From: Promethearchaeota archaeon
Lineage (GTDB): Archaea > Asgardarchaeota > Lokiarchaeia > Sigyniarchaeales > SOKP01
NCBI GenBank assembly: GCA_030603385.1
Contig: JAUVXW010000030.1
Coordinates: forward strand, 1 to 57,970
DNA: 57,970 nucleotides
Reading direction: 5' to 3'
The number at the start of each line of letters is the position of its first letter. Position 1 is the first letter of the stretch. Of this stretch, positions 18,094 to 43,434 are shown piece after piece. A program made the translations under genes and the position numbers. Under the pieces are notes generated by a model that searched no databases, was not told the DNA's origin, and saw only the letters and a list, made by a program, of their open reading frames with translations.

Positions 18094-18796
18094 GGAGAAA
18101 TCAGAATTGATTTGTGGTATAGACGAGGCTGGTAGAATATAATTCATTTCGAATTCTGTACCAAAAGGTCCCGTTCTTGGTCCTCTTGTTTTGTGTGGTG
18201 TTTGTTTTAAAAAAGATCAACTATCATATTTAGTTGAAATAGGTGTAAAAGATTCTAAGAAATTAAGTGCTAAAAGAAGGAGTACACTAGCAAAACTAAT
18301 TAAGGATAAGTGTCATTCTTTTAAAATTCTTATAGTTCCTCCAGCAGAAATTGATCAAAGGGAAGAAAAAAGAATTACATTGAATAAATTAGAAGAATTA
18401 AAAATGGCTGAAATTATTAGAGAATTAAAACCTAGCTCAATATATATTGACGCCGTCGATGTAAATGAAGATAGATTTAGAGATTCAATACTAAATCTTT
18501 TAGATTATAGTCCAGAAGAAATCATTTCAAAACACAAGGCTGATGATCTATTTCCCATAGTATCAGCGGCCTCAATCATTGCCAAGGATAAAAGAGACAC
18601 CTTAATTGAGGAAATGAAGGAAAAATATGGAGATTTTGGTTCGGGATATCCTTCGGATAAAAGAACTATTGATTTCCTTCGAAAATGGATAAAGAAGAAT
18701 AAAAAGATACCACATTTCGCTAGAAAATCATGGGCTACAACAAAAAAAATATTAGAAGAAGAACTATCTAACAGAAAAATAACTGATTTTTTCTGA
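18071..18796 (+). CDS. rnhB: Ribonuclease HII, interrupted by a 30-nt BHB intron (join 18071..18135, 18166..18796)
   Basis: LICGIDEAGR | GPVLGPLVLCGV is split by a 30-nt insert with in-frame TAA. GVKDSKKL, KADD..VSAASIIAK, GSGYPSD motifs. Start is TTG 18071 or 18107. Confidence 0.92.
18136..18165 (+). other. Putative BHB intron in rnhB mRNA (30 nt)
   Basis: Central helix TGGT/ACCA, 3-nt bulges AGA and AAA, internal stem ATATAATTC/GAATTCTGT. Confidence 0.85.
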
Positions 18797-41725: not shown

Positions 41726-42512
41726 ATGTTTCAGCAAGCAGGACGCGGGTATGATATGGCTATTACGCAATTCTCACCCGAGGGACGGCTTTTTCAAGTT
41801 GAGTATGCTATTGAAGCCGTTCGAAGAGGAACAACCGCAATAGTGTGTCGGAATAAAAGCTCTGTTGTGTTTGCGGTTGAGAAAAAGAGCTCTGAGCTTC
41901 AAGAACAAAGCATGGGTTCGGAAAAAATATTTAAAATTGACGACCACATTGGCGTAGCTATTGCAGGATTGACCGCGGACGCTAGAGTACTAATCTTAAG
42001 TCCCACAGGCGACTGAGAGTACTAATCGATCGCGCCCGCGTTCAAGCTCAAGTTAATTTATTGAATTATGATGAGAAAATCTCTGTGAAGGACAGCACGA
42101 TAAATATTTGCGAGTATAAGCAAGTATTCACTCAAAACTAGGCGGAGCTTATCCGTTAGTGAGCCATGCCGGTGTGCGACCTTTTGGAGTTTCTTTTCTG
42201 ATTGCTGGAATTGATGCAAATGGACCCTCCTTATATCTCACTGATCCGAGTGGAGCTTTTTGGAATTATTTCGCCTTCGCTATCGGATCGGGTTCGACTG
42301 AAGCAAGGGCTTACCTTGAAGAACATTATAATAAAGATATGAGTGATGAGGAATTAAAATTATTACCCTTAAGAGCTCTCAAGGAATTGATGGATGATAA
42401 TTTAGATAAAAATACATGTGATGTAGCTTTTATATTGAAAGAGGATAAAACGTTTAAACTTCTAAGTTTAGATGAAGTGGAAGAATTACTAAGTAAATTA
42501 TCAGATTCCTAA
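41726..42512 (+). CDS. psmA: Proteasome subunit alpha with two BHB introns (join 41726..41992, 42025..42136, 42166..42512; 241 aa)
   Basis: [20 protein letters not shown]; spliced [10 protein letters not shown]|IDRARVQAQ...KQVFTQ|[10 protein letters not shown]; TDPSG, AIGSG. Located upstream of sdo1-rrp4. Confidence 0.93.
41984..42027 (+). repeat. 12-bp direct repeat AGAGTACTAATC (41984..41995 and 42016..42027)
   Basis: Exact repeat spanning both splice junctions of psmA intron 1. Confidence 0.95.
41993..42024 (+). other. Putative BHB intron 1 in psmA mRNA (32 nt)
   Basis: Central helix GTAC/GTAC, bulges TAA and TAA, inner stem TCTT(A)AGTC/GACTGAGA. Confidence 0.87.
42137..42165 (+). other. 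Putative BHB intron 2 in psmA mRNA (29 nt)
   Basis: Central helix CTCA/TGAG, bulges AAA and CCA, inner stem CTAG(G)CGGA/TCCGTTAG. Confidence 0.87.
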
Positions 42513-42630
42513 AATCTTGTATAAGATATCAAGGTTCCAGCTTATTATATTTATCAATTAATACAGAGACAAAATATAGGAAAAGATAGAAATCAAGGAA
42601 AATCATGTTACACAGTTGTGAAATTATACT

Positions 42631-43434
42631 ATGATCGATCGACCGACTGACCGAGGAAGAATTGATTTAGGCGGATTTATTGTTGGGAAAATTGAGAAAT
42701 CTGGAAGACGTTTCGAAATGTTAATGGATCCAGAGAAAGCCTGGGAAGCAAAGAAATTAATTCGAGAAGAAATCGACAAACGTTTAAAATCAGGAGCAGA
42801 AAAATCCCGACTTACTATTGATGATATCCTGGATAATAATAAGATAGATCTAGAACTAATTTTTGAGAGTTTTACCGTATTTGAAGATTTAAGAAGAGGT
42901 AAAAAGGCAACAGATGGTGATATGGAAGCCGTTTTTGATACAAGCGAGGGCATGAGAATAGCAGGACATATTCTAATTGAGGGAGAAATACACTGGACGA
43001 AAACTCAGAGAGAAGAGGAGAAAAGTAAAAAATTGAAACAAATTATAACGATTATTAGTAAAAATGCTATTAATCCTCAGAATAAGAAACCTCATCCATA
43101 TCAAAGAATAGAGAAAGCAATTGAAGAAGCAAAAGTAAAAATTGATTTAATGAGGGGCGCTGAAGAACAAGTTGACGATGTAGTTAAAAGCATTCGAGCT
43201 ATCATTCCTATTCGCATGGAACAAGTAGAGATAGCAATAAAAATTCCTTCAGCTTTTACAGCCAAGGGATATAATATTGTAGCTCAACTAGCACAAATTA
43301 AAAAAGAGGAATGGCAATCTGATGGGTCTTGGGTTTCTGTTGTTAGCTTACCAGCAGGTTTGCAAATGGAATTGATAGATAAGTTAAACAAACTAACCCA
43401 TGGGAGAGTTCAAACAAAACCTTTAAAATCCTGA
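42631..43434 (+). CDS. sdo1: Ribosome maturation factor SBDS/Sdo1
   Basis: GRRFE, INPQNKKPHPYQRIEKAIEEA, EEWQSDGSW; superoperon position. Confidence 0.92.
   Translation: MIDRPTDRGRIDLGGFIVGKIEKSGRRFEMLMDPEKAWEAKKLIREEIDKRLKSGAEKSRLTIDDILDNNKIDLELIFESFTVFEDLRRGKKATDGDMEAVFDTSEGMRIAGHILIEGEIHWTKTQREEEKSKKLKQIITIISKNAINPQNKKPHPYQRIEKAIEEAKVKIDLMRGAEEQVDDVVKSIRAIIPIRMEQVEIAIKIPSAFTAKGYNIVAQLAQIKKEEWQSDGSWVSVVSLPAGLQMELIDKLNKLTHGRVQTKPLKS

Follow-up and report, generated by a model that had tools for sequence, protein, structure and literature searches.

A 12-nt direct repeat at both junctions of a bulge-helix-bulge mini-intron in an Asgard archaeal psmA gene: a possible scar of duplicative birth

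A bulge-helix-bulge (BHB) intron is reportedly present in the cbf5 pre-mRNA of Crenarchaeota (Watanabe 2002; Yoshinari 2006). Group I introns, in turn, move by intron transfer, or homing, with co-conversion of the flanking exons. For spliceosomal introns, the described routes of gain include duplication of an AGGT proto-splice site, either in tandem or by a transposon with target-site duplication, the repair of double-strand breaks, which leaves direct repeats, and "intron transfer" (PMC3443670). For introns in tRNA genes, transposition has been described in Thermoproteales (Fujishima 2010, in PMC3293823), and a 2026 preprint with a census of Asgard tRNA introns describes repeated gains, finds no general route and states that the way in which these introns arrive is open (bioRxiv 10.64898/2026.10.13.758758). 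One broad survey of direct repeats around splice sites includes only four introns from Archaea (PMC11782384), and in the literature searched no birth proposal of such a kind was found for BHB introns.

The locus described here lies in the genome of a Promethearchaeota archaeon (assembly GCA_030603385.1; hereafter G000), within a window of 57,970 nt, the whole stretch of DNA that was analysed. The gene is psmA, encoding the proteasome alpha subunit, and it is read from the plus strand in three collinear pieces that match the Pfam families Proteasome_A_N and Proteasome: exon 1 (41726-41992; residues 1-89; PF10584, PF00227), which is colinear with 29 orthologues, exon 2 (42025-42136), and exon 3 with the stop codon (42166-42512). 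They are separated by intron 1, of 32 nt (41993-42024), and intron 2, of 29 nt (42137-42165). A sequence-only reading of this DNA had set psmA intron 1 beside two other introns; psmA itself has two, not three, and the third belongs to rnhB (18136-18165). In close relatives (loci L114, L115 and L117), the gene upstream of psmA has a weak profilin (PF00235) match and the gene after it is of the SBDS family; in the window, the equivalent place downstream of psmA is taken by the ORF at 42628-43434.

Intron 1 is bounded by two exact copies of the 12-mer AGAGTACTAATC, at 41984-41995 and 42016-42027, which lie 32 nt apart from start to start and enclose 20 unrelated bases, the filler TTAAGTCCCACAGGCGACTG (41996-42015). 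This arrangement is as the sequence-only reading had described it, and a whole-genome search (3.89 Mb, 30.8% G+C) found no further exact copy of the 12-mer beyond the psmA pair. The core of the repeat, GTAC, is self-complementary. Each copy consists of AGA, one strand of an outer helix; GUAC, which enters the 4-bp central helix; UAA, a 3-nt bulge; and UC, the start of the other outer helix. Copy 1 is the 5' half-site, and copy 2 the 3' half-site, of a BHB with perfect two-fold symmetry, GUAC:GUAC with two UAA bulges, in which the 3-nt bulges lie on opposite strands with the 4-bp helix between them, in register with the reading frame. The geometry that the same reading had ascribed to the palindromic core is thereby borne out: from the duplicated AGA-GTAC-TAA-TC come the central helix, the two bulges and, in each flanking helix, the first pairs.

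In the minimum-free-energy fold of 41970-42042 (-23.5 kcal/mol, z = -2.3), GUAC of copy 1 is paired with GUAC of copy 2, and UAA is bulged after copy 1. The filler forms the intron hairpin, which comprises UC, the filler and AGA (UCUUA/UGAGA, one bulged A, GUC/GAC, CC/GG), and the intron-side helix is strong, with 8 pairs and the one bulged A. The exon-side helix beside the 3' bulge is of a relaxed form, with 2 adjacent pairs and a distal 8-bp GC stem. This GC-rich exon-exon stem, CGCGG.CGC (41974-41982) against GCG.CCGCG (42032-42040), brackets the motif and has 8/8 Watson-Crick pairs in G000, versus 2-6 in the 29 relatives. The stem is complete in G000 alone; an allele that carries the same intron (L116) has CCGAA for CCGCG, with the loss of two pairs. 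The 5' strand of the stem, ACCGCGGA, is already found in the intronless alleles L118-L120.

Cleavage was assumed to occur after the second bulge base, a rule that was checked on two 30-nt histone introns of G000, whose predicted products, KHNGA and TRND, match intact paralogues. Excision of 41993-42024, or of the frame-shifted equivalents within the repeat, yields an uninterrupted psmA that is colinear with all orthologues, and the product is identical for every cut position inside the repeat. The genome encodes two EndA-family proteins of ~200 residues each (PF01974; contigs C44 and C9) and one RtcB (PF01139; C39). Apart from the relaxed exon-side helix, intron 1 passes the sequence-level tests for an archaeal BHB mRNA intron; presumably, the splicing endonuclease cleaves the mRNA within each UAA bulge and RtcB ligates the exons. 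The spliced junction was also considered as a mimic of a tRNA anticodon arm; with 3/5 stem pairs, counted by hand, this idea was rejected.

The 96-residue ORF that runs from exon 1 into the intron recurs letter for letter on two other contigs, one from a JGI metagenome and one from an ENA assembly, which differ from the window by 1 and 4 SNPs, respectively, and have the identical intron and repeats. A third outside contig, L116 (Logan SRR30965928), also carries intron 1. Since three other assemblies from different samples contain the identical intron, it is not a mis-assembly, an outcome that the sequence-only reading had named as fatal to its proposal. The longer, ORF-bearing allele for which that reading had suggested a search was not seen at the site. 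In 29 congeneric species, the psmA orthologue reads through the site without an insert (...GCN AGA GTN CTN ATT GAY...); 9 closer intronless alleles from public assemblies are likewise without intron 1, and the outgroup matches are all single open frames of ~240-270 residues. All exons are intact, and strong purifying selection acts on them, with 94-98% amino-acid identity versus ~80% DNA identity. Judged from these alleles, psmA intron 1 is a lineage-restricted gain.

Searches for a source of the intron were empty throughout. The filler has no second copy at up to 3 mismatches in G000 or in 53 congeners, apart from two chance matches inside ordinary coding sequence, one in G027 (3 mismatches; the sole one in the genus) and one on contig C24 (the best within the genome, 16/17), which were set aside. 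Neither the JGI metagenome contigs nor 185,579 species genomes contain an exact copy of it. Exact-pattern scans of metagenome and species-genome collections, from which records near the window's own genome were possibly left out, returned nothing for the spliced junction, the filler or the 12-mer empty site, and neither the 38 alleles nor the 185,579 species genomes yielded an intronless allele with AGAGTACTAATC.

The rarity of the repeat was estimated in three ways. Because the AT-rich genome yields a low real-to-decoy ratio (1.3-2 even with a dicodon coding score), the lists from a structure-only BHB census of G000 were used solely as a background distribution. Among the 5042 BHB-shaped, ORF-joining candidates of this census, which are mostly background, junction microhomology of at least 8 nt has a probability of 0.2%, and psmA intron 1 exceeds all the others, its half-sites being identical at 12/13 positions and its microhomology 12 nt long. 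When the junctions of verified introns were paired across different positions, 0/260 permutations reached 8 nt. Analytically, the probability of a palindrome given a paired central helix (0.08), multiplied by that of six further free identities (5.6e-4), is 4.6e-5. The three estimates agree that the repeat of psmA intron 1 is far beyond chance. A repeat-first scan of the genome gave no other in-register repeat of at least 9 nt with a strict BHB and a restored ORF; suitable half-sites are themselves frequent, at about 1 per 164 nt.

The generality of the pattern was examined in a verified set of 17 intron instances at 12 independent positions, defined against intronless orthologues or paralogues: two in psmA, one in rnhB, five in dodecin genes (seven genomes), three in histones, and one in a G002 gene. 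Junction microhomology at these positions is 12, 8, 5, 3, 3, 2, 2, 1, 1, 0, 0 and 0 nt, so that 9/12, including two apparent singletons (dod52 and dod11), have 0-3 nt and stand at the permutation null. Among these nine are the window's two other introns, psmA intron 2 and the 30-nt rnhB intron, with 1 nt of identity each, and the earlier observation that they lack such a repeat was correct. A palindromic central helix is present at one of the 12 positions, psmA intron 1, compared with 8-12% in the background. The genome-wide enrichment of junction repeats and palindromic helices that the sequence-only reading had predicted is therefore not borne out by these counts.

One further intron has a long repeat. 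This second, independent intron, at residue 47 of dodecin (G073 and G067), has an 8-nt junction repeat, TAAAGAAG, made up of bulge and helix, which has decayed in G063. Its central helix, GGUU:AACU, lies outside the repeat; therefore, a palindrome is not required. Long junction repeats are thus over-represented, at 2/12 positions against an expectation below 0.05 in a small set drawn partly from one gene, but most introns lack them. In the dodecin gene, 204 nt long (loci L089, on G000 C11 at ~21080, L082, L084, L087 and L088), the intron positions at residues 22 and 47 share the exon half-site GGTTAAAG and the intron 3' end AACTAA. The same half-site with unrelated interiors in the two introns hints at a preferred target motif.

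Verified introns of this kind are sparse. Reciprocal tblastn of G000 against 400 kb of G002 yielded no more than two weak candidates in G000 and two sites in G002, a five-genome search revealed almost no split histones, and a genus-wide search of the histone family listed intact genes only. A symmetric candidate on contig C4 (30 nt, AATT helix, TGA bulges) was rejected as an intron, as it reads through in frame and its orthologues have the same length. The G002 orthologue of a gene on G000 C36 (G002 C3, ~76486-76567; L095-L096) contains two 34-nt inserts with a 15-nt micro-exon, EYPMG, between them; the second has a strict BHB (ATGG:CCAT), and the first is without a strict motif in register. 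Rfam searches with four non-coding symmetric BHB-like repeats gave nothing useful. Two such elements lie outside long ORFs and have no Rfam match. The first, on the minus strand at the end of contig C15 (approximately plus-strand 67326-67366; L034), is a 19-nt near-exact direct repeat, CTTAG-N-ATATTTACTAAGA, with 38 nt spacing; its copies would together make a fully symmetric BHB whose outer helices are 5 bp long. The second, on C26 (approximately plus-strand 119401-119432; L033), is an 11-nt direct repeat, TAATATCAATA, with 29 nt spacing, around a perfect 7-bp hairpin, and has an ATAT central palindrome and CAA bulges. As for tRNA genes, ARAGORN recognized only 18 (7 with introns) in the 94%-complete, 3.9-Mb G000; most are probably hidden by multiple or non-canonical introns.

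The alleles of psmA bear directly on how these introns spread. In coordinates of the spliced CDS, the site of intron 1 is 267 and that of intron 2 is 378. Intron-bearing L116 and intronless L117 come from sibling sequencing runs and differ at 25 positions in all, of which 14 lie within the 47 exonic nt of CDS 233-279, at nearly every synonymous site, and 7 within 371-407. Over CDS 231-280, L116 is identical to G000 and has intron 1; it is without intron 2. The corresponding patch, at 41959-42037 of the window, is the same in G000 and L116. G000 and L117 are identical over CDS 283-346 and 408-726 and divergent over 0-282 and 347-407. The segment 347-407 (42105-42194 in the window) surrounds intron 2, differs from L117 at 13 of its 61 exonic nt, and most resembles G031, the only one of 29 congeners that also has intron 2. 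The flank variants of intron 2 are common to G000 and G031 only and absent from all close intronless alleles, and intron 2 itself (CUCA:UGAG helix, bulges AAA and CCA) is common to both with compensatory changes.

All four combinations of the introns exist: both in G000, intron 1 only in L116, intron 2 only in G031, and neither in L117. Intron 1 is thus a presence/absence polymorphism between near-identical strains. The exon carried along amounts to ~35 nt upstream and 13 nt downstream of intron 1, and to ~30 nt on each side of intron 2. From these alleles it follows that homologous, short-patch recombination spreads the psmA mini-introns among related strains. The gene as a whole is a recombination mosaic, in which each intron sits in a short patch of foreign ancestry and the rest is identical to an intronless allele (loci L116, L117 and L025).

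This patch structure limits what the present alleles can say about the origin of the repeat. Since intron 1 lies inside a short recombined patch in both G000 and L116, the repeat was not generated in situ there, and the exon copy of the 12-mer may have travelled in with the intron rather than been its target. The empty site of the sibling allele L117 reads AGAGTGCTTATAGAC and has no palindrome, and each of the four junction codons, GTA CTA ATC GAT, ends in a base that is not found there in any close intronless allele (GTG CTT ATA/ATT GAC). An empty site with patch-type flanks that reads AGAGTACTAATC would strongly favour duplication; were it to read, for example, AGAGTGCTTATA instead, the exon copy would have been imported or adapted.

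The best reading of the 12-nt repeat is that it is the birth scar of a duplicative insertion, a reading that is drawn from one clear and one partial case and that we hold tentatively, at slightly less than an even chance. In an unsampled ancestral allele, a small hairpin-forming insert would have come to lie in the exon while 12 nt of its target were duplicated, as in the repair of a staggered break. With a target of the form h-GTAC-NNN-h', in which a palindromic 4-mer is flanked by complementary segments, duplication would yield the central helix, the bulges and the first outer-helix pairs; the duplicated target supplies these parts of the splice motif, and the insert would therefore be spliceable at once. 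In an important gene, only spliceable products would survive, which would also explain why the filler forms a hairpin. The intron now passes from strain to strain among relatives through homologous recombination. The repeat was preserved because coding or base pairing constrains nearly all of its 24 positions. Its identity extends to positions without a pairing role, the bulge bases T and A, which is accounted for by duplication and not by selection.

The duplication envisaged here is of a particular kind. A simple tandem duplication, as the sequence-only reading had suggested as one route, is excluded because only 12/32 nt are exon-derived; when compared by eye with the neighbouring exon 20-mers, the filler agrees at only 3/20 and 5/20 positions. 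The earlier proposal of birth by duplication thus finds partial support, in the lineage-restricted gain and in a repeat beyond chance, but not in its tandem form, nor as an event at the present site, given the patch. A transposable element with target-site duplication, of which related copies, a transposase or fixed terminal repeats would be the signs, is not supported either, and a fixed-stagger transposon is unlikely because the filler has no other copy in the genomes and contigs searched and the junction repeats vary in length (12, 8 and 5 nt). An excision footprint of the P-nucleotide type is unlikely as well, the ends of the filler not being, by eye, reverse complements of the adjacent flanks. 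Finally, a search of the 94%-complete genome gave no RVT_1-family reverse transcriptase, and insertion at the RNA level is disfavoured for this reason. Against the duplicative reading, besides the patch, stand the following: no empty site with the 12-mer turned up in the alleles and genomes searched; a 20-nt filler must be a hairpin, and random inserts rarely are; 11 of the 12 verified positions are without a palindromic helix; and 9 of the 12 have junction identity no higher than the null. The wider proposition, that mini-introns in Asgard protein genes are born through a hairpin insert and a duplicated self-complementary "proto-splice" half-site and are then passed on by short-patch gene conversion, is more doubtful.

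Other origins must be weighed against the birth scar. The intron might have been imported as a ready-made cassette that existed beforehand in some other gene, in a mobile element or in a distant lineage; the exon 12-mer would then have come from the donor, or have been needed for insertion at the site, rather than being a duplicated target. Such a cassette, its insertion guided by homology or structure, could have entered through an exchange between mRNA and circular intron RNA, mediated by endonuclease and ligase at matching half-sites and followed by copying to DNA, or through recombination that overwrote the junctions. The joint movement of the intron with ~50 nt of exon as a patch between alleles speaks for import, as does the third-position divergence of all four junction codons, and a BHB formed in trans would, from its geometry, force identity on the outer-helix parts of the half-sites. 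Formation in trans nevertheless leaves the identical bulges and the palindrome unexplained, with a residual coincidence of ~0.002; no donor of filler or 12-mer appears in G000 beyond psmA, in the 53 congeners, in the JGI metagenome contigs or in the 185,579 species genomes; and copying to DNA would have to proceed in a genome where no RVT_1-family enzyme was detected. We therefore consider import unlikely. It is less likely still that an originally asymmetric intron acquired its symmetry after insertion, its half-sites having converged by selection as a substrate or by gene conversion between nearby segments. The complete pairing of the exon-exon stem in G000, compared with its relatives, does suggest that the exon was tuned around the intron, and GTA and ATC both pair better. 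Pairing demands complementarity, however, and not identity, and the matches of the bulge bases and of AGA with AGA have no known structural value. Moreover, the 11 other intron positions show no drift to symmetry, and gene conversion is not established for tracts of 12 nt that lie 32 nt apart.

Chance identity, superimposed on structural constraint and an A/T-rich composition, is improbable to a similar degree. Palindromic central helices do occur at the background rate of 8-12%, A-rich bulges are common and make short identities frequent (the probability of at least 3 nt is 0.36 in the permutation null), and psmA intron 1 was chosen post hoc. Against this, its 12 nt are the maximum of the 5042 background candidates and lie above all 260 permutations, and at an analytic probability of ~5e-5 the expectation is at most 0.015 even with 100-300 introns per genome. 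Hardly credible, finally, is an artefact or a dead gene, whether the assembly is at fault or psmA has recently become a pseudogene, disrupted by an insertion that is not spliced out. A second alpha-subunit paralogue is present (G000 C4), and the splicing of intron 1 is deduced from its sequence; but the identical insert occurs in three other assemblies from different samples, the intact exons bear the mark of strong purifying selection, the BHB geometry is exact, and psmA intron 2 is conserved with compensatory changes.

Among the described systems, psmA intron 1 resembles the intron of cbf5: both are short, are defined by a BHB and interrupt an archaeal mRNA that encodes a protein, and the tRNA splicing endonuclease and a ligase presumably excise them. 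Unlike the cbf5 intron, it is found in an Asgard (Loki-type) archaeon, measures 32 nt, is perfectly symmetric, carries an exact 12-nt repeat, and is polymorphic between strains within a recombined patch. The likeness to tRNA intron gains is that BHB introns have been gained repeatedly and recently; there, the introns lie in tRNA genes and the evidence consists of families of related introns, whereas psmA intron 1 is without relatives, and the preprint text searched does not deal with junction repeats. With homing, the locus shares the presence/absence polymorphism in near-identical alleles and the short tract of flanking exon that travels along. However, the 32-nt intron is too short to encode a homing endonuclease, and general recombination is therefore implied. 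The psmA alleles thus directly show BHB introns moving between strains along with short exon tracts.

Parallels to the proposed birth are found among spliceosomal introns. As in gains through break repair, filler DNA lies within a short target repeat of variable length (12, 8 and 5 nt in three introns here); those gains are eukaryotic and proceed by end joining. As in the AGGT model, a duplicated short exonic motif would serve both splice sites and give a precisely removable insert that leaves the protein unchanged. Unlike in that model, psmA would rely on a protein endonuclease that reads RNA shape, the half-site is self-complementary, and only 12 of the 32 nt are duplicated exon. The locus offers a concrete and testable model of birth: a gain is found there with an exact junction repeat from which the whole splice signal derives, and alleles both with and without the intron occur in nature. 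In an Asgard host, mechanisms of intron gain and spread also bear on ideas of how interrupted genes became common before eukaryotes. If true, birth from a proto-splice half-site would be a prokaryotic counterpart of the AGGT model, in the closest archaeal relatives of eukaryotes.
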